Shown here: in pieces, positions 5,061 to 23,979 of the stretch | Position numbering within the stretch: the first letter of the stretch is position 1 | Layout: every line of letters begins with the position of its first letter | Source of the DNA: an uncultured Candidatus Saccharibacteria bacterium | GTDB lineage: Bacteria; Patescibacteriota; Saccharimonadia; Saccharimonadales; Saccharimonadaceae | DNA: 64,000 nt | Direction of reading: 5' to 3' | NCBI GenBank assembly: GCA_965241395.1 | Contig: CBDEOC010000059.1 | Span: forward strand, 5,198 to 69,197 | Notes under the pieces: generated by a model | Seen by the model: the letters and a program-made list of their open reading frames with translations, nothing else | What the model was told of the DNA's origin: nothing | Database searches by the model: none | Translations under genes and position numbers: made by a program

Positions 5061-5137
5061 GGCACCGTAGCTCAGCTGGTCAGAGCGTGGGACTCATAAG
5101 CCCGAGGTCACTGGTTCGAGCCCAGTCGGTGCTACCA
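5061..5137 (+). tRNA. tRNA with CAT anticodon (elongator Met, or Ile2 if lysidinylated), CCA encoded
   Basis: The cloverleaf can be drawn by hand: acceptor GGCACCG/CGGTGCT, anticodon loop CTCATAA, T-arm ACTGG TTCGAGC CCAGT. Overall it is most like elongator tRNA-Met. Confidence 0.85.
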
Positions 5138-5156
5138 AGTGGACTATACAATTGAT

Positions 5157-5234
5157 CGCGGGGTGGAGCAGTCTGGTCAGCTCGCTTGGCTCATAACCAA
5201 GAGGTCGTTGGTTCAAATCCAACCCCCGCCACCA
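5157..5234 (+). tRNA. Initiator tRNA-fMet (CAT), CCA encoded
   Basis: CGCGGGGTGGAGCAG...CTCATAA...GGTTCAAATCC closely resembles bacterial tRNA-fMet. It has an unpaired 1:72 position (C:C) and an A11:U24 pair. Confidence 0.8.
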
Positions 5235-5553: not shown

Positions 5554-6468
5554 ATGACTAAGTATCTCCTAGCTGTGTCGGGCGGAGTAGACTCAATGGT
5601 GCTGCTGGACATGGTGGCGACAAACTATCATGGCTTACGGGAGAAATATCTTAGCGGAGCGCAATTTCCGGCAGACTTTGTAGTAGCACATTACGACCAT
5701 GGTATCAGAGGGAAAGTATCTGCTGAGGATGCCAAGTTTGTCCGGCAGCAGTGCCGTAACTACGGGGTGGTAGTGCAGTGCGGTTGCGGTAAGTTGGCTG
5801 CTGTTACCGGTGAGGCAGTAGCTCGTCAGTATCGTTATGATTTCTTCCGGCGGGTGGCGGAGGCGATAGCGAGAGATGATGAGCCGGTTTACTTGGTGAC
5901 GGCGCATCATCAGGATGATTTACTCGAGACCATCGCTCTTAACATAGTGCGAGGGACGGGCTGGCGAGGACTAGCGCCGATGAACCAGCCGCAAGTACTC
6001 CGACCGCTCCTTGATATAGCTAAAGCAGAGTTAGTTAGCTATGCTATAGAGCATGGTCTCACCTGGCGAGAAGATCAGACTAATGACAGCCCGAGATATC
6101 TGCGCAATCGTCTCCGGGTTTTGCTGGCTAGCCGGTCACCGGCCGACAAAGCGGAACTAACCCGGCTATATGAGAGGCAGAAGCATTTACGCTGGCAGAT
6201 TGAGCGAGAGTTAGAGCATTACTGTACTCGGCATATTACTAGAGATAAGCAAGGTCAGCTAGTGCTGCGCCGTTATGATCTGATCATGCTCCCGGCGGAT
6301 GTCGCCATAGAGATACTTCGCCGGTTGACGAAGGGGTGGCTCACCCGCCCGCAGCTCGGTCAATTATTACTCTTTATCAAGGTGGGTAAGCCAAGCAAAC
6401 AACTGAGCTGGAAGCGACTCAATGTCCGACTGGATGTGCGTCGGGTCTATTTTTACCCGGAAATGTGA
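5554..6468 (+). CDS. tilS: tRNA(Ile)-lysidine synthase
   Basis: PP-loop SGGVDSMVL, AHHQDD and TilS-like sequence throughout. TAAAAT ends 6 nt before the ATG. Confidence 0.9.
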   Translation: MTKYLLAVSGGVDSMVLLDMVATNYHGLREKYLSGAQFPADFVVAHYDHGIRGKVSAEDAKFVRQQCRNYGVVVQCGCGKLAAVTGEAVARQYRYDFFRRVAEAIARDDEPVYLVTAHHQDDLLETIALNIVRGTGWRGLAPMNQPQVLRPLLDIAKAELVSYAIEHGLTWREDQTNDSPRYLRNRLRVLLASRSPADKAELTRLYERQKHLRWQIERELEHYCTRHITRDKQGQLVLRRYDLIMLPADVAIEILRRLTKGWLTRPQLGQLLLFIKVGKPSKQLSWKRLNVRLDVRRVYFYPEM

Positions 6469-6472
6469 CTAT

Positions 6473-6534
6473 ATTTACCGGATAAAAATGCGAAAACTTC
6501 TCATTTTTACCAAGTTTTCGCATTTTTGCTGTTA
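6473..6534. repeat. 62-nt leader element of ATPase-1, containing a perfect 16-bp inverted repeat; a second copy lies at 17983-18044
   Basis: AAAAATGCGAAAACTT (6484-6499), a 12-nt loop and AAGTTTTCGCATTTTT (6512-6527). The copy at 17983-18044 differs at 2 positions. Confidence 0.85.
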
Positions 6535-6548
6535 TACTAGTATGTATC

Positions 6549-7754
6549 GTGAAGTATATAGAACGGGCAGAGTATCTGAAAACTCTGCGAGAGCTAAAGG
6601 ATAAACATATCATTAAAGTGATTACCGGTGTGCGTCGTGCCGGTAAGTCTACTCTGATGCAACTCTTCAGAGAAGAAATAGCCCAAAAAATAGATAAGAG
6701 TCGGATCCAGTCATACAACTTTGAAGATCCAAAGTATAATGACATGACTAGCTGGCGGGAAGTCTATGACTTGATAGATAAGAAACTAGTGAAAGGTGAG
6801 CTGAACTATATTTTTCTTGATGAGGTCCAGGATATTCCGGGATTCGAAAAGCTGCTTGATGGACTATATATCAACGAGAATGTTGATCTGTATGTCACCG
6901 GCTCAAATGCCTACCTACTTAGCTCCGAGCTGGCGACTATTCTGACCGGTCGGGCTTATGAAATAAATATCCTACCTTTTTCGTTCAAAGAGTTCGCTCA
7001 GACTTACGCAAACTCGGCTGACGATAGTATAAAGTTTGAGCATTTTATGCGCTACTCAGCCTTTCCCCAAGCTACCGAGCTAATGCATCAGAATCCTGCT
7101 CTGGTTGTGAATTATCTAAGAAGCGTATATGAAAGCATCTTGGTAAAGGACATGCTTCCACGTAAACAGATATACGCTGAGCGTAGTTTTGAGAACGTAG
7201 TTAACTACGTGATGGATTCGATCGGTTCAAGCTTGTCACCTAATGGTATTGCTAGGGTTCTCGCTAGTGACAATAAAACGGTCGACTCTCGAACGGTTCA
7301 TTCATACTTGAAGTCGCTCTGCGATAGCTTCGTACTTTATAAAGCTGAGCGGTTTGACATTAAGGGTAGGCAAAATCTAGCGACACAGGAGAAGTACTAT
7401 GTAGTTGACCTTGGCTTTCGTAACTTACTACTTGGTAAAGAAGTCGGTCAAGATGCCGGTCATTTGTTGGAAAATGTTATCTACTTAGAATTGAGGCGAC
7501 GAGGTAATGAAATATGGGTCGGTAAGATTGGCGAAAGGGAGGTAGATTTCGTTGCTCGTGATAATGAAGGGTATCTAACATACTATCAAGTGGCCTATAC
7601 TGTGCGAGATGAAGCAGTGCTGAAGCGTGAGTTGGCGCCCTTTGATAAGATCCCTGACCATAATCCCAAAGTTCTTATCACTCTTGATCCGGAAGAAGTC
7701 TCCCGGCGCGGGGTGCGGCAAGTCAACGCAATCAACTGGCTACTTAGTGATTAA
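6549..7754 (+). CDS. COG1373-type AAA+ ATPase with a DUF4143-like C-terminal domain (ATPase-1)
   Basis: Walker A VITGVRRAGKSTL, Walker B IFLDEVQ and a C-terminal EVDFVARD...YYQVAY module. GTG start. Confidence 0.8.
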   Translation: MKYIERAEYLKTLRELKDKHIIKVITGVRRAGKSTLMQLFREEIAQKIDKSRIQSYNFEDPKYNDMTSWREVYDLIDKKLVKGELNYIFLDEVQDIPGFEKLLDGLYINENVDLYVTGSNAYLLSSELATILTGRAYEINILPFSFKEFAQTYANSADDSIKFEHFMRYSAFPQATELMHQNPALVVNYLRSVYESILVKDMLPRKQIYAERSFENVVNYVMDSIGSSLSPNGIARVLASDNKTVDSRTVHSYLKSLCDSFVLYKAERFDIKGRQNLATQEKYYVVDLGFRNLLLGKEVGQDAGHLLENVIYLELRRRGNEIWVGKIGEREVDFVARDNEGYLTYYQVAYTVRDEAVLKRELAPFDKIPDHNPKVLITLDPEEVSRRGVRQVNAINWLLSD

Positions 7755-7842
7755 GTAAAGTTCGGGGTGGGATGCCTGCATTGACGACAGCGGACATTTC
7801 AACTAAGCTTATGTTTAATAGTAAGGATGGGAACGAAAAATA

Positions 7843-8535
7843 ATGGACACGTCGACTGGTGAAAAGGTAGCTTTAATTACTACCGAGTCACTGACTAAGC
7901 GTTATCGAGTGGGTGGCCATGATCTACTGGCGACGAACAATGTCTCGCTGTCGATTAACCGAGGTGAATTCGTGGCGATTGTAGGTGAGAGCGGTAGCGG
8001 TAAGAGCACTCTACTGCAACTACTGGGAGGACTGGACAAACCGACTAGCGGTTCGATTGTCGTTAATGGAGCGGAGGTCACCGGGTTGAGCGACGGCAAA
8101 CTGTCGCAATTTCGCAACCGGACGATCGGCTTCGTCTTCCAGTCTTTTTATCTCCAACCGTTCTTAACTCTGCGCCGAAACATCGAGGTGGCAGCTATGC
8201 CCAGCCGGATGAAGCGGGACACCAGGCGAGCTCGGACTGATCGGCTGGCTGAGCAAGTCGGATTGGCTGATCGGCTAGACTATTATCCTCGCCAGCTATC
8301 AGGTGGACAGATCCAACGAGCGGCGATCGCCCGAGCACTATTCAATAAGCCACCGATCTTGCTGGCTGATGAGCCGACCGGCAATCTCGACTCACAGAAT
8401 AGCCAAGGCATCATTGCCCTGTTTCGGCAGATCTGTGATGAGTGGGGTACGACTGTAGTGGTAGTGACACATAGCCGAGAGGTAGCGATGGTAGCGGATC
8501 GGGTAGTCACAGTAAAAGACGGAGCTATCGTATGA
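7843..8535 (+). CDS. ABC transporter ATP-binding protein (MacB/LolD/FtsE-like)
   Basis: [26 protein letters not shown] and LLADEPTGNLD motifs. Confidence 0.92.
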   Translation: MDTSTGEKVALITTESLTKRYRVGGHDLLATNNVSLSINRGEFVAIVGESGSGKSTLLQLLGGLDKPTSGSIVVNGAEVTGLSDGKLSQFRNRTIGFVFQSFYLQPFLTLRRNIEVAAMPSRMKRDTRRARTDRLAEQVGLADRLDYYPRQLSGGQIQRAAIARALFNKPPILLADEPTGNLDSQNSQGIIALFRQICDEWGTTVVVVTHSREVAMVADRVVTVKDGAIV

Positions 8536-10487
8536 TCAAGCTTGGCGATGTCGCTCTGCTCTCTCTGACCAAGCTTCATACTCGGAAGATTAGGACGATT
8601 ATCACGATACTGCTTACCAGCATACTGTTCGGTGTTTTGGTCATGGGGTCTTTGGTGACTAACGGTGTATTTCGAGGAGTAGATAGCTTTAAGCGGAACG
8701 GGCTGACCGGACGCTACATCGTTAGTGTTGCTAAAGCGTTTGATAGCAATGCCGGCACTACAACTTCTAAAGACCCTATCCTGATAGCCGAGGCGAAGAA
8801 GCGGTATCAACAGCTGGTCAAAGCTAAGACAGTGGAAGCGAAGCGACTGGGTATAGACTACTTGCAGGAAAGTGACGATCCGCCGTATTCACGCCTTGAT
8901 GATAACAGTGAGATGCTCAAGCCGAGCGATTCTAACGGCATCATTCACCGGCTTCTCAAGGAGAAGTTTAGCGGCCAGCCGGTTATCGACGAGACAACAC
9001 TTAGGAAGCGTGCCGGCAAATATCATAGCATCGGCATATATAAAGAGCTGTACTACACACCGGTGACAGGGTCATCTTTATTACACTTGAAAGACGGCAG
9101 AGAAGCTTTTTACGATATTTCCAAAGATGCGGTGAAGAATGCAAATGATATCAGGTCGCCACTTGGTGATGGTCGCCTGATAACAGCTCCGGACAGCCTG
9201 GTCAGCTCGTTTATCTTGCCACATAATGCCAGCTGGCAGCCGGACGGCCAGAGCTTGCCGATCATATTACCTCGGGATGTGGTCGAGCATTTACTGGGCT
9301 TGGGCAAGCTACCGGATAACGCCTCGACTAAGGAGCGCTTGGATCGGCTACACCTCATCTATGATAAGGCAAAAGACCTAACTTTTCAGATGTGTTACCG
9401 TAATGACGTATCGCAGGCACAGATCCAACAAGCTATCCGGCAACGACGGGAGATCAATGCTAATAAAGGCAAGAAGGACTATCAAATGCCTTCTCTGGTC
9501 TACGCTTTACCTGATGCAACTAAGTGTCAGAACGCCATCACTATCCGAGATACTCGGACGGCTGAGGAGAAGAAACAGGATGCTAATCAGAAGATATTTG
9601 ATGTTAGATTCGGCAAAAATACCGAGCCGATCAGTGCTATGGTGACCTTTAAGGTGGTCGGTGTGTCTCCGGCGATGAACGATAGCGTGACGGATCTCAG
9701 CCAGCCCGGCAAGAAAGAGCGTTCACGGAGCTTTAAGGATATAGTTAATGATCTATTGCGGGTGGATAGTATCGGGCAGGTCATACCCCAATCACTCTAT
9801 GACCGGCTCCCGAATAAGTATGCCTATGCCGGTATATTTAGCTACACGCCAACTTACACATTTGGTAATGAAGACAATGTGCTGTACTTCGTCGAGTTCG
9901 CTACGGCGAAAGATGCTCAGAAGTTTATCGATGAACAGAGCTGTAGGACGCAGTATGACGGCACTTGCAAGCCGAGCGGGAGACTATATATGGCGGATCT
10001 CGTCTTTAGTAATAGTTCGGCGATCGACGATATTCAGAAGCAAGTTCGGATATGGCTCCATTACGCTATGTTGGCGGTAATCGTGCTAGCGGTCGCCATC
10101 ATGTGGATCACGGTCGGTCGGACGATAGTTGATGGTCGGCATGAGACAGCGGTTTTTCGGGCGATTGGCTTTAAGCGGGTAGATATCGCTAGCGTCTATA
10201 TCGTTTACACCATTCTCTTATCATTGCTTGTTACCACCTGTGCTTTCGGGTTAGGTATTATCGGGGCGCATTTGTTGGACGGACAGCTATCGCCCGGTTT
10301 AACTGCCCAGGCGCAATATGGCTTTAATGAGCTGAGCTCAGCCAAACGGATCAGTCTGGTCGGTTACGATTGGCATCAGTTAGGGTTGATCGCTATCATC
10401 TGCTTGGCTACCGGTCTCCTTAGTGCCGTCTTGCCCCTGATCCGTAATGTCCGCCGTAGCCCGATCCGTGATATGCGAGAAGAGTAG
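8532..10487 (+). CDS. FtsX-family ABC permease with a very large extracytoplasmic domain
   Basis: Its start overlaps the stop of the ATPase gene by 4 nt. It has an N-terminal TM helix, an extracytoplasmic region of about 480 aa, and a C-terminal FtsX-like three-TM module (FRAIGFKRVDIASVYIVYTILLSLLV). Confidence 0.75.
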   Translation: MIKLGDVALLSLTKLHTRKIRTIITILLTSILFGVLVMGSLVTNGVFRGVDSFKRNGLTGRYIVSVAKAFDSNAGTTTSKDPILIAEAKKRYQQLVKAKTVEAKRLGIDYLQESDDPPYSRLDDNSEMLKPSDSNGIIHRLLKEKFSGQPVIDETTLRKRAGKYHSIGIYKELYYTPVTGSSLLHLKDGREAFYDISKDAVKNANDIRSPLGDGRLITAPDSLVSSFILPHNASWQPDGQSLPIILPRDVVEHLLGLGKLPDNASTKERLDRLHLIYDKAKDLTFQMCYRNDVSQAQIQQAIRQRREINANKGKKDYQMPSLVYALPDATKCQNAITIRDTRTAEEKKQDANQKIFDVRFGKNTEPISAMVTFKVVGVSPAMNDSVTDLSQPGKKERSRSFKDIVNDLLRVDSIGQVIPQSLYDRLPNKYAYAGIFSYTPTYTFGNEDNVLYFVEFATAKDAQKFIDEQSCRTQYDGTCKPSGRLYMADLVFSNSSAIDDIQKQVRIWLHYAMLAVIVLAVAIMWITVGRTIVDGRHETAVFRAIGFKRVDIASVYIVYTILLSLLVTTCAFGLGIIGAHLLDGQLSPGLTAQAQYGFNELSSAKRISLVGYDWHQLGLIAIICLATGLLSAVLPLIRNVRRSPIRDMREE

Positions 10488-15975: not shown

Positions 15976-16034
15976 ATACCGGGTTTTGTTAGACCTGGTA
16001 GAGTGATATCTCTACTACTAAGCTAATAGTTTAG

Positions 16035-17303
16035 TTATGACATCTCTCTATCTAGACTATCTTCATTTAGCAGGAAGTCTAGAATGTTCATGATGACAAT
16101 GCCGTTCTCTTCACGGCCCGGTAGCATCAGATCGCCGGTGACGATGATTCTTTTGAAGAAGTCGTCGATATTATTAAGCGGACGAGCCTCAATTGCTCTC
16201 TTCTCGGTATCGTTTATGGTGAGTGCTGACTGGATGTAATATTTACGGTCGCCCTGGTTGGCTACGAAATCGATTTCGACATGCTTCTTGCTCTTTTCCA
16301 TAGTCTTTAGGTTACGCTCATAAATCTCTACAACTCCGACATCAACCTGATAACCACGGTGACGGAGCTCATTATAGATGACATTCTCCATGATATGATT
16401 CTCTTCTATCTGGCGGAAGCCGACAAACGAGTTGCGAATACCGATGTCGGTGAAGTAGTATTTCACCGGAGTATCCATATACTGTTTACCCTTGACATCA
16501 AATCTCTTGGCACATTCGATGATATACGACTCTTCTAGCTTGCCGAGATAATCGTTGATAGTATTATGGCTCAGACTTACGTTTACCTTGCTCTTAAAAG
16601 TATTTTCCAGCTTATACGGGTTAGTCAGTGAGCCGACACTGGAGGCAACGATCTCGATAAGCGATCGGAGAGCAGTATCATTTCTCACGCTGTGACGTTC
16701 AATGATATCTTTGAGATAGATGTTTTGTTGAACCTCGTTTAGATAGGACATCTTTTGCCTGCTGTCGGAGTAGTGCATGATGAGAGGGAGACCACCATAG
16801 CGGATGTATTCCTGCCAACCATCATACTTATTACTATCATAAGCAGTCATAAACTCAGCAAAGCTAAGCGGATACATATGAATCTGCTCACTCCTGCCGC
16901 GAAACTCAGTCACGATATCACTCGAGAGAAACTTGGAGTTGCTGCCGGTCACATAAACATTCAGGTTGCCTTTAGCGAGGAAGCTACTGAGGACACTCTC
17001 AAATCTATTGACTAGCTGGATCTCGTCTAAGAGAAGAAAGTACTCGGAGTTATCCTTTACCTGATCTAAGATAAATGCGTGGAGAGCCTCACGATCGTGA
17101 AGCTTCTCATTTTCGAGTAATTCCAGGTTGAGATAGATGATATGATCCTCCGGCACTCCATCAGAGATCAGGTAATCCTTGAAGATAGGGTTTAAGAGAT
17201 ATGACTTCCCGCATCGACGGACGCCGGTGATTACCTTGATAAGGGGGATGCCTCTCCGATCAATTAGCTCCTTTAGATAAGTATCTCGTTTAATTTCCTT
17301 CAT
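16035..17303 (-). CDS. COG1373-type AAA+ ATPase with a DUF4143-like C-terminal domain (ATPase-2)
   Basis: VITGVRRCGKSYLL, LLLDEIQ and a C-terminal VEIDFVANQGDRKYYIQSAL module. AAAAGGAG RBS. It is a paralog of ATPase-1. Confidence 0.8.
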   Translation of the reverse strand: MKEIKRDTYLKELIDRRGIPLIKVITGVRRCGKSYLLNPIFKDYLISDGVPEDHIIYLNLELLENEKLHDREALHAFILDQVKDNSEYFLLLDEIQLVNRFESVLSSFLAKGNLNVYVTGSNSKFLSSDIVTEFRGRSEQIHMYPLSFAEFMTAYDSNKYDGWQEYIRYGGLPLIMHYSDSRQKMSYLNEVQQNIYLKDIIERHSVRNDTALRSLIEIVASSVGSLTNPYKLENTFKSKVNVSLSHNTINDYLGKLEESYIIECAKRFDVKGKQYMDTPVKYYFTDIGIRNSFVGFRQIEENHIMENVIYNELRHRGYQVDVGVVEIYERNLKTMEKSKKHVEIDFVANQGDRKYYIQSALTINDTEKRAIEARPLNNIDDFFKRIIVTGDLMLPGREENGIVIMNILDFLLNEDSLDREMS

Positions 17304-17345
17304 GTAGACTCCTTTTCTGCTCTAATTAAAGCACACATTTGTTCC

Positions 17346-17386
17346 TATTGACAATTTAGGTGACTTGCCACCGAAATTGTCAGTAG
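17346..17386. repeat. 41-nt palindrome-containing repeat, upstream (promoter-side) copy flanking ATPase-2
   Basis: Identical to 15935-15975. On the minus strand its right arm supplies TTGTCA, 18 nt before TTTAAT, ahead of the ATPase-2 RBS. Confidence 0.9.
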
Positions 17387-17461
17387 GAATATACTCGACT
17401 ACTGCTAGTGCGAGTAACTACATATGCTTGTTATATTGATTTTAGCTACTTCTTCCGGTGA

Positions 17462-17520
17462 GGTAACCCAATTTATGGGCTAACGACTGGTAAATGGGTA
17501 ACATTATTTATAAGATAATG
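17462..17520. repeat. Copy X of a ~60-nt repeat family (GGTAACC..TTATGGGCTAACGACT..AATGGGTAAC.TTATTTAT.AGATAATG)
   Basis: About 80% identical by eye to 34799-34858. I read it as a possible solo IS-end remnant. Confidence 0.6.
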
Positions 17521-17669
17521 CTGGAGTCTGCCCAGCTGATACCAAACAAAATCAGGGAGTAATGACTTATTGACCTATCCTGGATAAGGAATAGTTGTTG
17601 TATCTTGCTGGGACTTGACATGGAGCGCTATTTTGCTACAATTAAACTAATCACCATGACCAGACAGGC

Positions 17670-17936
17670 CTAAGGTTTCGACCGACCGCCGATGCTGGTC
17701 ATTTCATATTCCAGTTGATTTCTTGCTCCGCCGATAATATTGATGCGATTACGATATTCTCTCAGCAAGCTGGAATATCGTTTATTAGGGCACATTAGTC
17801 CTCCGAGCTTGCCTTTTCCTTCGAGGTATCTCGCCAAGCAACTAAAATCGCCGTCACCGGATACGATAATAGCTTTATCGCATTCCTTGAAACATCTAGC
17901 TGAGGCGTAAAGCACTAGCCAGCCATTCTCAACCCA
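17670..17936 (-). pseudogene. 5'-truncated NYN/LabA-like domain gene fragment
   Basis: AIIVSGDGDFSCLARYLEGKGK matches the C-terminal SGDgDF motif of NYN domains. The frame is closed by a stop at 17937-17939, and the N-terminal catalytic half is absent. Confidence 0.45.
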
Positions 17937-17982
17937 TCAAATATGAGTAAAAATGCGGGACTTTAGCTTGATGGCAGAGCTA

Positions 17983-18162
17983 ATTTACCGGATAAAAATG
18001 CGAAAACTTCTCGTTTTTACCAAGTTTTCGCATTTTTGCTGCTACATTATTAGACAAGATCCCTGACCACAATCCCAAAGTTCTTATTACTCTTGATCCG
18101 GAAGAAGTCTCTCGGCGAGGGGTGCGGCAAGTCAACGCAATTAACTGGCTGCTTAGCTACTG
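17983..18162 (+). pseudogene. Internally deleted remnant of an ATPase-1 paralog (leader plus last ~35 codons)
   Basis: 17983-18044 matches the 6473-6534 leader. 18056-18162 matches the 3' end of ATPase-1 (7647-7754, about 90% by eye), reading ...DPDHNPKVLITLDPEEVSRRGVRQVNAINWLLSY*. Confidence 0.85.
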
Positions 18163-18262
18163 AAGCTATAAGACCACGCCGTCGACGGACGGAGCTACTA
18201 CGTATCATCCAGCCACTATTCAACCTATGCTATCATCTATAGTATAAAGAGTCAGAGCAATT

Positions 18263-19024
18263 ATGGGTATAGCAAAGTTAGGAAAACAGATAAAGGAACA
18301 CAAGGTATTCGTAATCGTACCAATAGTTATCCTTATTGTAGTTGTGCTTGCCCGCACCTTTATCTGGAGGGATTACACCAATGAACGGGTGGAGATGGCT
18401 ATATATTTGAAAGATAAGTACGGTGGTCAAGAGTTCGTAGTCGGGAAGCCGGTGCGAGAGGGAGCAATGTTTGCTATCGAGGGTTATTTAGTTGCCATAG
18501 CCCACCCCGCCAATAACAGTAAAATAAAGTTCAGAGTAATACACTCGTCGTCAGCCAGATATGATGGATACGCCGGAGCTGTCTGGTCTAACGAGGAATC
18601 AAAGAGACTAAAGCCGGAGATATACCGCCTATTTGGCAGTGACACCGACTACACCGTCGAGATAAAGTCAGCATTGGAACTTCAAAATGCGCAGGTAAAC
18701 TTCCATGGTAAAATAATTGCCCTCGACGACATAGCCAAGATTTACGGCAAACAAATCCCCTACGGCTTAGCGATCAAAAGATTAAAGAAGAATCTGTCAG
18801 ATGATGAAAAGGAAGACATCGTAAATAAACTGATTGAACTATCGGCGTCACTGCCGGATAAAACGGATACTGCCGTCACATATATATCTGAAACAAGCGA
18901 GAAGAGAGAGTATGGCCTGGCGGTGCCACTTGATAACCTTCGTAAACTAAACAACAGACAGGATAAAATTAACCTATTCAGTGAATGGAAGGTAGGTGAA
19001 TCGCAGGATCAGGACTTATATTAG
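18263..19024 (+). CDS. Hypothetical N-terminally anchored protein
   Basis: 253-aa ORF with one N-terminal TM helix (VFVIVPIVILIVVVLA). I recognise no motif. It lies in the AT-richer island. Confidence 0.5.
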   Translation: MGIAKLGKQIKEHKVFVIVPIVILIVVVLARTFIWRDYTNERVEMAIYLKDKYGGQEFVVGKPVREGAMFAIEGYLVAIAHPANNSKIKFRVIHSSSARYDGYAGAVWSNEESKRLKPEIYRLFGSDTDYTVEIKSALELQNAQVNFHGKIIALDDIAKIYGKQIPYGLAIKRLKKNLSDDEKEDIVNKLIELSASLPDKTDTAVTYISETSEKREYGLAVPLDNLRKLNNRQDKINLFSEWKVGESQDQDLY

Positions 19025-19065
19025 GACGGATTTCATTAGTATTTAGCTTAAATCAGCAGAATTTC

Positions 19066-20337
19066 CTAATCTTTAGATATACGATGGCGGATGTAAGGTA
19101 TGAAGCCGGCGGCGGAAATTAATGATATTACAAACGCCGAGACGACCTCATGATTAGAGTTCCACAATGCACTCCAAAACGGCGGTGATGTCATGGACTG
19201 TAAAACGACCAGAAAGTTATTCATTGTATGTACGGGCAACAAATTATTAATGCAATAGGCGAAACCAACTATGGTACCGACAACGGCAATGATGCCGAGT
19301 ATAACTTGATCAAGGACTGCAGGATAACTTCTAGTAATTAATCCATATGTCCCCCAAGTGATAAGGGCGGTAAGAAGTCCCGTAATGCATGATACGGAGT
19401 GTTGTCGCCAAAGGAACGACCACACACCGATAGTGGCAGGTATACCTATCGCAGCCGCCACTAAAAGGGCGATACATCTAACGTAGTGCTTAGGTACAGA
19501 GTTGTTGAAAGGAAACTTCTCCGGCTTCTCTGCAGTAGTCGTAGTGCCGATCATGTGAGAGGAGTAGTACGGGACAGTGCACACCTCCCTGGGTACTTCC
19601 TCTTCGTGGGCGTGTTGTCGCAATTCTAGCTTAGATGCATAGAGCATACTCTCGGCGATTATTGTCAGAGCAGCGTCCGGCTTGATGATATCTCCGGCTG
19701 AGACAATGGCTTTTTGCAACATTACACCATAACAGCCGGGCCATTCAGATACAGATGGGATAATTCGCCTGAGGTGGTCTGTGCAACTATTCCATAGCTC
19801 GGTGATTGATTCTTTCGACAGCACCTCCGGGCGGTATTGATCAGGCATCCTGATGACACCGAATTTATCGCTACCCATGGTCTCCATACTGTATTTGATA
19901 CAATCCTGGATATCAAAATCACGAAAGACTTGTTCTTGTCCGATCTGCTTCATACCTCCACCAACGATAGCCCACGGCGAGTACTGTTCGCCAAACAGCT
20001 TTTGCAGGATCATATTACCAGCATAGTATGTCTCGCCGTCTTCAACTTGCAAGGTGAGGATGGCTTCTGGATCATCTGCCATAGCTGCCATCTGGCAGGC
20101 ACATCCAGCCATCAAGCTAGAAACATATAGAAGTAGCTCGATAGACATCATTTTATCTTTGGAGTTGTAAACTGGTCGCATAATGAAATCAAACATCTCT
20201 TGCCCGCCGAATTCCATACGTTCCTCCGGATTCAGCTGAGCAAGCTGATATCTGAGCGACTCGATCAATACATCGTTCGAGACCCCTGATGATTTATTCT
20301 CTATATCTGCCAGTGATTTTGTTTCCTTTGATGTCAT
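19066..20337 (-). CDS. Hypothetical protein: ~270-aa soluble N-domain plus a C-terminal multi-TM domain
   Basis: 423-aa ORF whose C-terminal third has about 4 hydrophobic helices. I recognise no motif. Confidence 0.5.
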   Translation of the reverse strand: MTSKETKSLADIENKSSGVSNDVLIESLRYQLAQLNPEERMEFGGQEMFDFIMRPVYNSKDKMMSIELLLYVSSLMAGCACQMAAMADDPEAILTLQVEDGETYYAGNMILQKLFGEQYSPWAIVGGGMKQIGQEQVFRDFDIQDCIKYSMETMGSDKFGVIRMPDQYRPEVLSKESITELWNSCTDHLRRIIPSVSEWPGCYGVMLQKAIVSAGDIIKPDAALTIIAESMLYASKLELRQHAHEEEVPREVCTVPYYSSHMIGTTTTAEKPEKFPFNNSVPKHYVRCIALLVAAAIGIPATIGVWSFLWRQHSVSCITGLLTALITWGTYGLITRSYPAVLDQVILGIIAVVGTIVGFAYCINNLLPVHTMNNFLVVLQSMTSPPFWSALWNSNHEVVSAFVISLISAAGFIPYIRHRISKD

Positions 20338-20583
20338 GATACCCTTGATACCTAGCTAATTTACAGACATTATACACGATGAGTGATAAGCGTGTACTAG
20401 CTTGTGCTAGTCTAGCGTGTAGCGAAATGCAGTACACTCCGCCAAATGAGTATTTAGCTTATGTCGCTAAAGCTGATACTTCCCTATCCGAGTCAAGTCT
20501 GTCTGACCTACCAATCATCAGGCAATGTGCACTATTTCACCAATCAGCTATTATATGGTATTATCTAGCTACTACCTCCCTGA

Positions 20584-20660
20584 GGGTCAGTAGCTCAGCT
20601 GGTTAGAGCACGGGCCTCTTAAGCCTGGTGTCGTGGGTTCGAGTCCCACCTGACTCACCA
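20584..20660 (+). tRNA. tRNA-Lys (CTT), CCA encoded
   Basis: Acceptor GGGTCAG/CTGACTC, anticodon loop CTCTTAA, T-arm GTGGG TTCGAGT CCCAC. Confidence 0.9.
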
Positions 20661-20825
20661 TAAAGGTATTATTTTCTGATCGGACTTTGGTCGACTATTT
20701 TCTCGGGCTATGAGCTAATCGCTAGAGTGTTTTATTGGCGGGCTACGGGTTATTAATTAGGAGCAGTCTTCCATATTTCATTCGGAGGTTGACTTATTTT
20801 TCGCAAGCGTTATGGTGGTTGTACG

Positions 20826-21899
20826 ATGAAGGTGAAAAACAGTGATATTGCGGTAGTTGATCTGTTCTGTGGAGTTGGCGGTCTGACGTGTGGACTTAAG
20901 AAAGCGGGACTTAATGTTGTGGCCGGTATTGATAACGATGTTACCTGTAAGTATGCTTACGAAGAAAATAATCAGGCCACTTTTATTGAGGCCGATGTTT
21001 CAAAGTTTGCTAGCTCAAGAGTTGAGAAACTATTCAAGAATGCAGAAATCAAGATTATGGTTGGGTGTGCTCCGTGTCAAAGATTCTCAAGTCAAGCGAA
21101 TAAATATAGGCGGAACATTGACACAAGGACTGATGTTAGGTGGAATCTGCTAAGGTCGTTTGCTCAGTATATTGAAGATATAAAGCCAGATATCGTATCT
21201 ATGGAGAATGTTCCGGAGCTTTGTAAGTATGATGTATTCGAAGATTTTCTGGAGAGATTGGATAAGTTAGGATATCATACAAGTTACAAAATAGTTGATT
21301 GCAGCAAATATGGACTACCACAAAAACGTCGTAGGTTAGTCCTTCTGGCATCAAAGTATGGAGAAATACAGCTAATATCAGAAGGGGCTATCAAGAAAAG
21401 ATTAACGGTTCGTGATGTATTGGCAGGGCTTCCTAAAATTTCTCATGGTGAAGTAGACAAAGACGATCCATTACACAGAAGTGCCGGATTATCAGATATT
21501 AATTTACAAAGAATTAAGCAATCCAAGCCTGGTGGCTCATGGCGAGATTGGGATGAAATGCTGTTGCCAAAATGTTATAAAAAACCAACCGGCAAGACCT
21601 TTGGCAGTGTCTATGGTCGAATGGAATGGGATAAACCGTCTCCGACGATTACGACGCAGTTTTATTCCTTTGGAACCGGGCGTTATGGTCATCCGGAGCA
21701 AGACAGGGCGCTTTCGTTAAGGGAAGGGGCTCTACTACAGACTTTTCCTGAAGACTATCGGTTCTTCGAAAACGCTGATGATATATCAATAACGACAATT
21801 AGTCGCCATATTGGAAATGCTGTACCGGTTGACCTAGGGAAGATCATAGGGTTGTCTATTAATGAGCATTTGGAGAATATAACCAATGGAAAACAATAA
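20826..21899 (+). CDS. DNA (cytosine-5)-methyltransferase
   Basis: Motif I DLFCGVGG, motif IV GCAPCQRFS, motif VI MENVPEL, motif VIII QKRRRLVLLA and motif X GNAVP. Confidence 0.92.
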   Translation: MKVKNSDIAVVDLFCGVGGLTCGLKKAGLNVVAGIDNDVTCKYAYEENNQATFIEADVSKFASSRVEKLFKNAEIKIMVGCAPCQRFSSQANKYRRNIDTRTDVRWNLLRSFAQYIEDIKPDIVSMENVPELCKYDVFEDFLERLDKLGYHTSYKIVDCSKYGLPQKRRRLVLLASKYGEIQLISEGAIKKRLTVRDVLAGLPKISHGEVDKDDPLHRSAGLSDINLQRIKQSKPGGSWRDWDEMLLPKCYKKPTGKTFGSVYGRMEWDKPSPTITTQFYSFGTGRYGHPEQDRALSLREGALLQTFPEDYRFFENADDISITTISRHIGNAVPVDLGKIIGLSINEHLENITNGKQ

Positions 21900-23571
21900 A
21901 CTTGTTTTAAAATTTGATCCACATACCATAGAACACCTAGGTATTAAAATGTATTCGCAGCTGCCTCATGCACTGGCTGAGCTTGTGGCGAATGCTTACG
22001 ACGCAGCGTCCACTAACGTGAGAATCCACTTATCAGATTCAGACCCCTCAAATAAAACCATTACTGTAATTGATGATGGTGACGGAATGTCATATGAAGA
22101 AGTCCAGGAGAATTTTCTAATTATTGGTCGCAAGCGAAGAGACTATGATGACACTCGCCTTAACTCAAAAAATAGACGAATTACTGGCAGAAAGGGTGTC
22201 GGAAAGTTGGCTCTGTTCGGTATAGGCAAAAATATACAAATCGAAACTACCAGACGTGGAGATGCTAACAAAACAGTATTCAACTTAGACTGGGATAATA
22301 TTCTGAGCGAAACTTCAGGCCAATACAACCCGCCATTTGAAATTATTAAAAAGAAAGATCCCGAAGAGCATGGTACAACTATCGTCTTGTCTCGCTTAAC
22401 TAGAGTCTCTGATTTTAACGAGAATGATATTGCTATCTCATTGTCAAAACTGTTTAATTGCTTCTCAAGCGACTTCAAGGTAAGCATAGCTCGAAATAAC
22501 TCAGAGCCCTTATTATTAACTAGGGATATGCTATATGATAATATCAATCAACAATTTAGCTGGAGAGTTGAGGACATAGTTAATGTACTAGATGGCGACT
22601 ATAGACATAAAGCCAACCTAAAAGGATTAATAGTATCATCTGAAAAACCGATAAAGCCGGATTTAAGAGGTATTTCGTTGTACTCTAACGGACGCTTAGT
22701 GAATACTGCTGGATTTTTTGGAGTACCAGAAGCTGGTCATACATTTACGTATCTATCAGGGTGGATAGACGCCGACTTCTTGGATGAAATGGATGACGAT
22801 TTAATCTCAACAGATAGACAATCTCTGAGCTGGGATTTACCGGAAACAAAAGCCTTGCAAGCATACCTTCAGAAGATTATGCGGTATCTGGTGAAGGATT
22901 GGAGTGAGAAACGAAAGAAAGTAAAAGAAGAACGGATGAACCAGCGTTCTGGCGTAAATATATCAAATTGGGCTAGTACTATGCCCGACGACATGAAGAA
23001 GCCCTTTCTTAAGGTTGTTGATAAAATCAGCTCTAGCCCGTCTATTGACGATGACGATTATTCTAATGTTATAAAAGATCTTCATGAAGCTTTGCCAGAC
23101 TACCCGATATATCATTGGCGCAATCTACATAGCAGCATAAAAAGCGTTAGTGAATTAAAGTATAAAAATGGGGATTATTACGGAGCGCTTACAGAGGCAT
23201 GTAAGGAGTACGTTAAAGCAGTTAGGGCTAAGTCAATCAGTCAAAATCCAAATCAAGCCCAAATGATCAGAGAGCTAGACGATAATCCTTTAATGATGAA
23301 GGTGTTTAATGAAAACCCGAAAAACGCTATGTTGCGCATTGCGCAATCAGCAACCCGTCCAGACGGGACGCCTTTTGATGATGAAACAAAGAAGAATCTT
23401 GAGAGTGCGCAAAGGTATTTATCTGCAGGTGTCGTCAGTGGTTATCGAAATCCTCTGTCTCATGAAACGCATAATGATTTATCTGTGGCGGGTGTCATTA
23501 CAGAACAACATTGCTTGGATGCTTTGAGTCTGCTGTCTTTACTGTGTACAAGATTGGACAAAGCAAAGTAA
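21886..23571 (+). CDS. GHKL (MORC/HATPase_c_3-like) ATPase fused to a C-terminal HEPN-type (TIGR02391/Abi_C-like) domain
   Basis: N-box ELVANAYDA, G1 DDGDGM and G2 GRKGVGKLALFGIG. The C-terminus has GYRNPLSHE (Rx4H, nt 23446-23463). The gene overlaps the methyltransferase gene by 14 nt. Confidence 0.7.
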   Translation: MENNKLVLKFDPHTIEHLGIKMYSQLPHALAELVANAYDAASTNVRIHLSDSDPSNKTITVIDDGDGMSYEEVQENFLIIGRKRRDYDDTRLNSKNRRITGRKGVGKLALFGIGKNIQIETTRRGDANKTVFNLDWDNILSETSGQYNPPFEIIKKKDPEEHGTTIVLSRLTRVSDFNENDIAISLSKLFNCFSSDFKVSIARNNSEPLLLTRDMLYDNINQQFSWRVEDIVNVLDGDYRHKANLKGLIVSSEKPIKPDLRGISLYSNGRLVNTAGFFGVPEAGHTFTYLSGWIDADFLDEMDDDLISTDRQSLSWDLPETKALQAYLQKIMRYLVKDWSEKRKKVKEERMNQRSGVNISNWASTMPDDMKKPFLKVVDKISSSPSIDDDDYSNVIKDLHEALPDYPIYHWRNLHSSIKSVSELKYKNGDYYGALTEACKEYVKAVRAKSISQNPNQAQMIRELDDNPLMMKVFNENPKNAMLRIAQSATRPDGTPFDDETKKNLESAQRYLSAGVVSGYRNPLSHETHNDLSVAGVITEQHCLDALSLLSLLCTRLDKAK

Positions 23572-23576
23572 GGAGC

Positions 23577-23874
23577 AAATATAATAAAGCGTTGGTCAGC
23601 AGAGGTAATATCTCTCTACTAATATCAGAAGACGTTATTAAAGATGGTCGCATTGTTCCACCCGGCAAGGCTAATCAAGCTGGCAGACCTAGGGAATACT
23701 CAGATGAGCTAATCAAGTTCATCTTAGCAATACGCACCTTGTTCAATCGCTCTCAGACAGACCAGCGGTTTCACTATATACTTATTTAAGCTAATGGAGC
23801 TAAAAGCTAGGGTGCCAAATTACACCACACTGTTTCGCAGAATGTCCAAGCTATTATTTAGCCTCCCCTCCTAG
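23577..23874 (+). pseudogene. IS5-family transposase N-terminal remnant (frame-shifted, DDE domain missing)
   Basis: KYNKALVSRGNISLLISEDVI...GRPREYSDELIKFILAIRTLF, then in another frame LMELKARVPNYTTLFRRMSKL. Both are typical of IS5-type N-termini, and no catalytic part follows. Confidence 0.6.
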
Positions 23875-23979
23875 ATCTCTGAATGAACTTTCTCTGTGGA
23901 TGGACTCAATTAGATTCAGGACTGACATGTGATCTTCGTATAGCTCGGTATTGTATATTAGCTGGATTACCGATACCGT

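Follow-up and report, generated by a model that had tools for sequence, protein, structure and literature searches.

A mobile two-gene cassette in a Saccharibacteria genome encodes an m5C methylase and a GHKL-Ymh protein that may couple CCGG methylation to a HEPN RNase

A 64,000-nucleotide (nt) stretch of the genome of an uncultured Candidatus Saccharibacteria bacterium (contig CBDEOC010000059.1; hereafter, the window) contains a two-gene cassette in which a gene for a C5-cytosine (m5C) DNA methyltransferase is followed by a gene for a protein that joins a GHKL ATPase module to a C-terminal Ymh domain, a predicted RNase domain of the HEPN class. We tentatively favour, with a confidence that falls a little short of even, the reading that this cassette is a mobile, NmeAI-type module resembling a restriction-modification (R-M) system, in which an ATPase clamp gated by CCGG methylation would switch on an RNase. 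The pair extends a family known from computational description to a new phylum (Saccharibacteria), and neither the GHKL-Ymh architecture nor the RNase idea is new: both have been in print as predictions, in 2008 and 2013. Orlowski and Bujnicki described the putative R.NmeAIP of REBASE as a GHKL N-terminus joined to a Hypoth_Ymh C-terminus (2008; PMC2441816), Iyer, Abhiman and Aravind (2008) defined the paraMORC GHKL families, which occur in R-M operons alongside cytosine methylases and Vsr, and Anantharaman, Makarova, Burroughs, Koonin and Aravind (2013) reported Ymh-paraMORC fusions in R-M neighbourhoods, placed them in paraMORC, not MORC, and proposed a PrrC/RloC-like role (PMC3710099). A preliminary description of the locus, made from the sequence alone, had mentioned a predicted partnership of MORC-like GHKL ATPases with R-M genes, and these 2008 and 2013 papers are where that prediction was published. 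What we add is a quantified methylase linkage, its tie to CCGG, and a domain-swap relation to the BbrUII/HgiDII restriction enzymes.

The methylase gene (20826..21899, + strand) encodes 357 amino acids (aa) and the GHKL-Ymh gene (21886..23571, +) 561 aa; the two open reading frames (ORFs) overlap by 14 nt, and a GGAG sequence lies 10 nt 5' of the second ATG. The methylase matches PF00145 over aa 9-345 (E 7.5e-57, 193.6 bits, cutoff 22), TIGR00675 (134 bits, cutoff 100.65) and the PADLOC models DrmMII/MTase_II (~1e-90), and its motifs I, IV, VI, VIII and X are present as FCGVGG (aa 14), PCQRFS (83), ENV (127), QKRRR (166) and GNAV (330). In the second protein, whose boundaries and architecture follow from the ORF call, profiles, motifs and a structural model, a Bergerat-fold ATP-binding domain (aa 27-164; 21964..22377, +) matches PF13589 HATPase_c_3 (E 1.1e-23, 84.3 bits, cutoff 25) and contains ELVANAYDA at aa 32, DDGDGM at aa 63 and GRKGVGKLA at aa 101. 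The canonical m5C motifs, the gene overlap, the ATPase peptides and the numbering of a C-terminal R521/H526 pair, all of which had been read from the sequence in the preliminary description, agree exactly with these results.

The all-helical C-terminal domain (23119..23556, +) belongs to the Ymh family. It matches PF09509 (Hypoth_Ymh) over aa 412-557 with an E value of 1e-15, this being the only C-terminal-domain match in ten diverse family members, and the protein reaches 40.2 bits with TIGR02391, barely over the cutoff of 39.45. A GYRNPLSHE sequence at aa 519 forms a canonical R-N-x3-H motif followed by E, with R521 and H526 (23446..23463, +) as the predicted RNase catalytic dyad. Ymh has been classed as a HEPN family with a conserved Rx4-6H motif (Table 1 of PMC3710099), and the HEPN assignment of the domain is supported by that literature and by the motif. 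An AlphaFold2 (AF2) model of the domain alone is all-alpha (pLDDT 90.8, pTM 0.84), and the HEPN structures HepT (7bxo, 6m6u) and AF_0298 (2hsb) surface in a Foldseek search at probabilities of 0.12-0.23. The domain had initially been assigned to the TIGR02391/Abi_C type of HEPN; the TIGR02391/PF09509 part of that assignment stands, whereas Abi_C (PF14355) gave no match at E values up to 10 in the window protein and nine relatives.

Both predicted centres are conserved throughout the family. R521 and H526 are invariant in all 179 non-redundant members (N522 is found in 171 and E527 in 173), as are the ATP-site residues E32, N36, D39, D63, G65, G67, G101, K103, G104 and G106, with T164 present in 178. 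These ATP-site residues belong to motifs I-IV of the Bergerat fold (ExxxNxxD, DxGxG, GxxGxG and GT). Such invariance indicates that both enzymatic centres are under purifying selection. The databases hold at least 1,789 homologues of the GHKL-Ymh protein, and the best 120 are, one fragment excepted, all ~555 aa long with both PF13589 and PF09509. Species-representative genomes contain at least 162 loci with relatives, 80 of which were retrieved and form the basis of the linkage and neighbourhood counts given below. These 80 come from Bacillota, Bacteroidota, Campylobacterota, Patescibacteria, Spirochaetota, Alphaproteobacteria, Verrucomicrobiota, Chloroflexota and other bacteria, and from the archaeal groups Pacearchaeota and Methanoperedens. 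An exhaustive search with the C-terminal domain alone returned only 198 representative clusters, many of them fusions of 520-620 aa and the shorter ones mostly fragments of the fusion, indicating that this sub-branch of Ymh is mainly found as a GHKL fusion. The HEPN form was absent from the phage collection, in which the GHKL part alone has matches, and a phage origin was rejected accordingly; plasmids, too, have almost none of it. Of the GHKL-Ymh homologues found on plasmids, the closest (L088, 5605-7287) lies on plasmid p1 of Burkholderia sp. RPE67, where the next gene downstream encodes a SIR2-domain protein (PF13289, with a weak TIR match) and the neighbourhood resembles a defence island.

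As judged by profile and alignment, the N-terminal ~390 aa of the GHKL-Ymh protein share homology with the BbrUII/HgiDII family, whose members are genuine Type II restriction enzymes. NF050001, the model for that family, matches aa 9-391 along profile positions 4-408 of 659 (E 5.6e-64), with a score of 216.8 that is below the family cutoff of 550; the D...(E/D)xK region is absent. The PADLOC REase_II models PDLC03419 and PDLC03485 and phrog_6203 match partially, in the same manner, and no dedicated PADLOC defence-system model covers the protein, the only further hit being a marginal one to PD-Lambda-3_B (E 0.015). The shared module (21910..23058, +) consists of the GHKL domain, an S5-like transducer and a long helical linker, and the alignment with BbrUII-type proteins extends through all three parts, including an ISTDRQS..W loop in the transducer. 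With an AF2 model of the full protein (mean pLDDT 77), Foldseek matched SMCHD1, Hsp90/TRAP1, PMS2/MutL, MORC2 and Topo VI-B over ~380-420 columns. Past the linker, the BbrUII-type proteins carry PWLxDP together with D...(E/D)xK, a pattern that typifies PD-(D/E)xK nucleases, and one of these relatives has a weak match to Shedu SduA_C; at that same position, the window protein and its Burkholderia relative carry the Ymh domain. Thus, Ymh stands where a genuine restriction enzyme has its effector. The plasmid-borne relatives that we retrieved all adjoin m5C methylases, and one of them, from Halobaculum (L091), is a bona fide NF050001 member (800.8 bits).

Outside the catalytic motifs, the best-conserved stretch of the protein is aa 301-318 (22786-22839), with D300, D305, I307, T309, R311, Q312, S313 and W316. 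It includes the ISTDRQS loop (aa 307-313; 22804..22824, +), in which T309, R311, Q312 and S313 are each present in at least 98% of the 179 sequences and which the BbrUII-type relatives also retain. The pLDDT is below 50 for aa 301-313, the least confident part of the AF2 model, and the stretch is probably a mobile functional loop; the ISTDRQS segment is possibly an ATP-sensing loop with a basic residue. R311 and R343, each found in 178 of 179 members, are both candidates for the ATP-contacting basic residue of the transducer; the model is a monomer with low confidence at aa 301-313.

This relationship invites a different reading, in which the GHKL-Ymh protein is itself a DNA restriction enzyme that cuts or nicks unmethylated CCGG, using either the Ymh domain or a so far unrecognised site in the conserved middle of the protein. 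Its N-terminal two-thirds share homology with real restriction enzymes and draw the REase_II matches, Ymh sits exactly where the cousins have their DNase-like domain, several acidic and polar residues of the middle region are invariant (D300, D305, T309, R311, Q312 and S313), methylase and partner form a translationally coupled, Type II-like gene pair, and the REBASE label R.NmeAIP implies restriction. We nevertheless consider this reading unlikely. HEPN domains characterised so far are RNases (PMC3710099); the middle-region loop is shared with BbrUII-type enzymes that have their own D...(E/D)xK and is therefore likelier to be a feature of the ATPase module; and no report of NmeAI restriction activity was found in the literature that we searched, which did not include the original papers (Claus 2000, Kwiatek 2004). 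The initial characterisation of the pair as having no recognisable endonuclease holds in one respect, since the partner contains no known DNase domain, but has to be qualified in others: its N-terminus is related to the BbrUII/HgiDII enzymes, a putative R.NmeAIP is already listed in REBASE, and some homologous loci carry HpaII.

Linkage to an m5C methylase, predicted to be of CCGG type, is nearly obligatory in the family, as the proposal of a methylation-related function for the pair had anticipated. The methyltransferase is kept in the same gene cluster in 76 of the 78 evaluable loci. It lies directly upstream on the same strand in 66 of the 80, is convergent and downstream in four (Campylobacterales), is separated from the GHKL-Ymh gene by accessory genes in three, and in three more is a different, HpaII-type enzyme with a restriction gene in between; two loci are cut by a contig end, and in two (L060 and L078) no full-length methylase was found nearby. 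Where the methylase is upstream, its gene overlaps that of the GHKL-Ymh protein at 34 of 64 measured junctions.

The loci that depart from the usual arrangement are informative about how the two proteins might be coupled. In a Flavobacteriaceae genome (L046, 4657-8623), an HpaII-type methylase gene is followed by R.HpaII (PF09561, E 1e-110) and then by the GHKL-Ymh gene, and in an unclassified sheep-colon bacterium (L036, 2-2286), R.HpaII (E 6e-88) stands at the contig edge, again ahead of the GHKL-Ymh gene. L082 has a methylase 70% identical to that of L046, a small ORF with a weak match to BsaWI, and then the GHKL-Ymh gene; L084 has the same layout, its small ORF being recognised by position only. 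The BsaWI target is WCCGGW. HpaII-type methylases share ~26% identity with the window enzyme in the catalytic half and cannot be aligned with it in the target recognition domain (TRD). In the family tree, the GHKL-Ymh proteins of these exceptional loci are scattered among proteins whose partner is an NmeAI-type methylase. The partner has therefore been replaced three times or more, and on each occasion the exchange stayed within CCGG systems, which argues that the DNA mark, not a particular methylase protein, provides the coupling. The presence of HpaII alongside a retained RNxxxH motif argues further that the function of the GHKL-Ymh protein is not redundant with DNA cleavage; in L046 and L036, where HpaII already cuts unmethylated CCGG, a second DNase of that specificity would be superfluous, an additional point against reading the protein as a restriction enzyme. 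L046 can be described in its own right as a three-gene CCGG system with a DNase plus a predicted RNase.

Partner exchange also bears on a guard model in the style of PrrC and RloC, in which the HEPN RNase would be silenced by the methylase or by an R-M complex and freed by a phage anti-restriction factor, so that the protein would provide a second line of defence and would not read DNA methylation directly. Such a role was proposed explicitly in 2013 (PMC3710099), the overlap of the two genes points to co-translation and perhaps to a complex, and some loci add a true restriction enzyme (HpaII) or ABC-type AAA_15/AAA_21 ATPases. Most loci, however, the window included, contain no restriction enzyme to guard, and the swapping of methylases between non-orthologous families is hard to fit with a specific protein latch and easy to fit with a DNA mark. 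We regard the guard model as quite improbable.

Several loci have additional genes. In two Chryseobacterium loci (L056, 2354-8635, and L061), a 996-aa GHKL/HEF_HK histidine-kinase-like protein and a Response_reg_2 protein are encoded between the methylase and the GHKL-Ymh protein; two-component-like elements of this kind have been described with paraMORCs (PMC8011034). An ABC-type ATPase of ~590-600 aa (AAA_15/AAA_21, OLD/AbiEii-like) is encoded in the operon downstream of the GHKL-Ymh gene in L026, L030 and L077, with Vsr 0.03-0.3 kb beyond it, and between methylase and GHKL-Ymh genes in L051, where Vsr lies beyond the GHKL-Ymh gene; an expanded variant of the module may include this ATPase as an accessory component. 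In L060 (Sphingobacterium pedocola, 5776-8617), a gene for a 405-aa HNH_2 endonuclease precedes and overlaps the GHKL-Ymh gene, and no m5C methylase was detected within 7 kb. L060 may represent a methylase-independent variant.

In 40 of the 80 loci, Vsr is encoded no more than 2.5 kb from the GHKL-Ymh gene. This association could mean that the family is not an immune system at all and that the GHKL module is a MutL-like accessory for very-short-patch repair, recruiting or stimulating Vsr at T:G mismatches that arise from deaminated methylcytosine. The fold of the N-terminal module resembles MutL/PMS2, and MutL stimulates gonococcal Vsr, including V.NgoAXIV on CTGG/CCGG substrates (PMC6116569). 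Half of the loci, the window among them, have no Vsr, however, and Vsr accompanies m5C methylases generally; a repair role would moreover leave the invariant Rx4H domain, and the homology to nuclease-bearing restriction enzymes, without a purpose. We consider it very unlikely.

The link between the window methylase and CCGG runs through Neisseria. The TRD-containing half of the methylase (aa 191-350) is 48% identical to the corresponding protein of a gonococcal NmeAI/NgoAXIV-type locus, and the catalytic half (aa 1-177) 35% identical; that locus was typed by its architecture (methylase, GHKL-Ymh, Vsr), not by identity to M.NmeAI. The TRD region is at least 36% identical across all but two of the family loci. 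CCGG is the methylation target of M.NmeAI/NgoAXIV (PMC4676702, PMC7973814, PMC6789123), and the target of the window methylase would, on this relationship, be CCGG as well. In the gonococcal record (L087, Neisseria gonorrhoeae NZ_CP119140.1, 1550491-1559684), both the methylase and the GHKL-Ymh gene contain in-frame stops and the downstream Vsr gene is intact (PF03852, E 7e-42). Although labelled as a plasmid, this record is a 2.17-Mb chromosome. Among other short palindromes, the HgiDII site GTCGAC is mildly low in the window, at an unremarkable observed/expected ratio (O/E) of 0.68. CGCG is extremely rare over window positions 1-64000 (O/E 0.07; 22 observed on both strands, 312 expected), GGCC has an O/E of 0.37, and TTTAAA is the lowest hexamer palindrome (0.21). 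This avoidance does not match the CCGG theme and is probably the footprint of other restriction pressure on this genome.

In the mechanism that we propose, the methyltransferase would place 5-methylcytosine on host CCGG sites and so mark self. The GHKL ATPase with its transducer/clamp, a module shared with the BbrUII/HgiDII enzymes, would engage DNA and read unmethylated CCGG, and ATP-driven dimerisation of the N-terminus would then pair two Ymh/HEPN domains into a composite Rx4H active site. N-terminal dimerisation on ATP is the general mechanism of GHKL proteins. The composite site would cleave RNA (tRNA, rRNA or mRNA), with arrest of translation and of growth as the outcome, and the trigger would be either the entry of unmodified foreign DNA or the loss of the cassette together with its methylase. 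That the cassette acts as an "RNA-restriction" module of this type, its GHKL clamp reading missing CCGG methylation and triggering cleavage of RNA by HEPN, and that it doubles as an epigenetic addiction module, is a serious possibility that we nonetheless hold to be somewhat doubtful. The authors of the 2013 study reached the same functional proposal (PMC3710099).

A number of results weigh against this scheme. The CCGG assignment of the window methylase derives from its 48% identity to a gonococcal locus typed by architecture only, and CCGG is not depleted in the window (O/E 1.24). The scheme also needs DNA binding and methylation sensing, both predicted activities of the GHKL-Ymh protein. 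The HEPN fold is unconfirmed: a Foldseek search of PDB and BFVD with the domain model gave a best E value of 0.9, and phmmer and profile searches of PDB sequences gave chance hits only. The activity of HgiDII and BbrUII was historically found in ordinary restriction assays, leaving the role of ATP uncertain even in the DNase cousins. Finally, L060 and L078 have an intact GHKL-Ymh gene and no full-length methylase nearby, suggesting that, unless these genomes encode a CCGG methylase elsewhere, the unpaired protein is not obviously lethal.

The cassette is mobile. The closest species-level genome, that of oral taxon 488 (L007), encodes a protein with 90% identity, and an identical GHKL-Ymh protein is found in GCA_004138445.1 and in many metagenome contigs, each time with tRNA-Lys on one side and the suf operon on the other. 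By blastn, similarity between the window and four other genomes of Saccharibacteria (L007-L010) is 78-81% at the nucleotide level and is confined to 20848-23564 (+), and in those genomes the cassette lies in unrelated contexts that have no tRNA. Because the similarity is limited to the two genes and their contexts are unrelated, the mobile unit is the two-gene cassette. No direct repeat of the 3' end of the tRNA could be convincingly identified at the flanks of the island.

In the window, the insertion is bounded on the left by tRNA-Lys(CTT) (20584..20660, +; ARAGORN, and Rfam RF00005 at 68 bits), a landmark that lies outside the system proper. A 165-nt leader (20661..20825, +) separates it from the methylase gene and has a Shine-Dalgarno-like GGTGG ahead of the ATG; the sigma-70-like match in the leader (20789-20816) is no better than chance (10 promoter-like sites against 9.6 expected from shuffles), and a promoter and terminator scan likewise gave counts no better than shuffled sequence. 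The right edge is a frameshifted N-terminal fragment of an IS5-family transposase (23574..23875, +; ORFs 23511-23789 and 23794-23874), which follows directly after the GHKL-Ymh stop codon (NF033579, E 1.7e-7; PF13737, a weak E 3.8e-5). The GC content is 0.39-0.42 over 21-24 kb, compared with ~0.51 for the backbone. The tRNA at ~165 bp, the AT-richer island and the IS5 remnant noted in the preliminary description are thus all borne out. Apart from the IS5 fragment, no further ORF of the island has a domain match, and no other nuclease gene was seen; the ORF list of the cassette includes no helicase gene, in contrast to the SF-II helicase operons to which MORC proper is linked (Iyer 2008), and an Rfam scan of the island found no family besides the tRNA.

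Upstream of tRNA-Lys, a low-GC stretch (0.42-0.46) extends over window positions 16000-20500. Two of its ORFs, 18263-19024 (+) and 19066-20337 (-), match no Pfam family, and a gene for an AAA_14/DUF4143 ATPase is located farther upstream. An IS3-type transposase (rve) takes the place of the upstream low-GC part in contig L002, so this flank is variable as well. Elsewhere in the window (5061-5234), tandem tRNA-Met(CAT) genes are spaced 20 nt apart.

If the proposed scheme is correct, a methyl mark that distinguishes self from non-self DNA would be wired to an effector that degrades RNA, blurring the line between restriction and abortive infection, and Ymh would be a second natural effector variant on the GHKL sensor scaffold of BbrUII/HgiDII, an architecture also seen in the Shedu-type protein VcSduA. 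With two genes in 2.7 kb, the module is compact; the family is also large and seems to be tied to one simple site, CCGG, which would make it an unusually tractable test case. For annotation, the names "TIGR02391 family protein" and "Type II restriction enzyme" are both too simple for these proteins, and for Saccharibacteria, the cassette would mark a mobile defence or addiction unit in a reduced episymbiont genome. The value of the present analysis would lie in sharpening a prediction in print since 2013, not in discovery. The family is, by sequence searches, widespread in bacteria and some archaea, our literature search returned no experimental test of it, and no paper in the literature since 2019 that we searched contains both "HEPN" and "GHKL".

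Our data place the cassette closest to the NmeAI/NgoAXIV systems of Neisseria (M.NmeAI, putative R.NmeAIP and V.NmeAI). The gene order is the same, m5C methylase and then GHKL-Ymh, and the gonococcal GHKL-Ymh protein aligns with that of the window over the full 561 aa at 34% identity; the Neisseria systems differ in their host phylum and in having a Vsr gene, which the window does not, and the "R" activity of NmeAI is putative. The window protein falls within the paraMORC-Ymh class of 2008 and 2013 with no substantive difference, that published description being purely computational and giving no specificity. The genes of the BbrUII/HgiDII enzymes likewise either follow an m5C methylase gene directly or converge on one, but these enzymes end in a ~250-aa domain with PWLxDP and D...(E/D)xK where the window protein has Ymh, and their target is GTCGAC, unlike the CCGG predicted here. 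Compared with classical Type II R-M systems, the window has the methylase, and profile searches found no known DNase domain in its partner. HpaII R-M shares the CCGG target predicted for the GHKL-Ymh family, and its endonuclease is not encoded in the window.

PrrC and RloC resemble the window protein in that an NTPase is fused to a C-terminal HEPN RNase and linked genetically to R-M genes. Their NTPase, however, is ABC/Rad50-like and not GHKL, and they are associated with Type I/III systems that have a real restriction enzyme, whereas most loci of the present family have none and carry a Type II-style m5C methylase instead. The window protein has no DUF4263/SduA_C match and no PADLOC Shedu match, and VcSduA (Shedu type I-D/paraMORC3, from the WASA lineage of Vibrio cholerae) differs from it in its effector, a DUF4263 PD-(D/E)xK DNase instead of HEPN, in being encoded by a stand-alone gene without a methylase, and in providing direct protection instead of abortive infection. 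In VcSduA, a GHKL ATPase and a clamp-like middle domain control the C-terminal nuclease, and phage defence is abolished by mutation of either the ATPase or the nuclease (PMC12137116). By analogy, VcSduA is the best experimentally tested counterpart of the logic proposed here, in which a GHKL clamp would govern a C-terminal effector.

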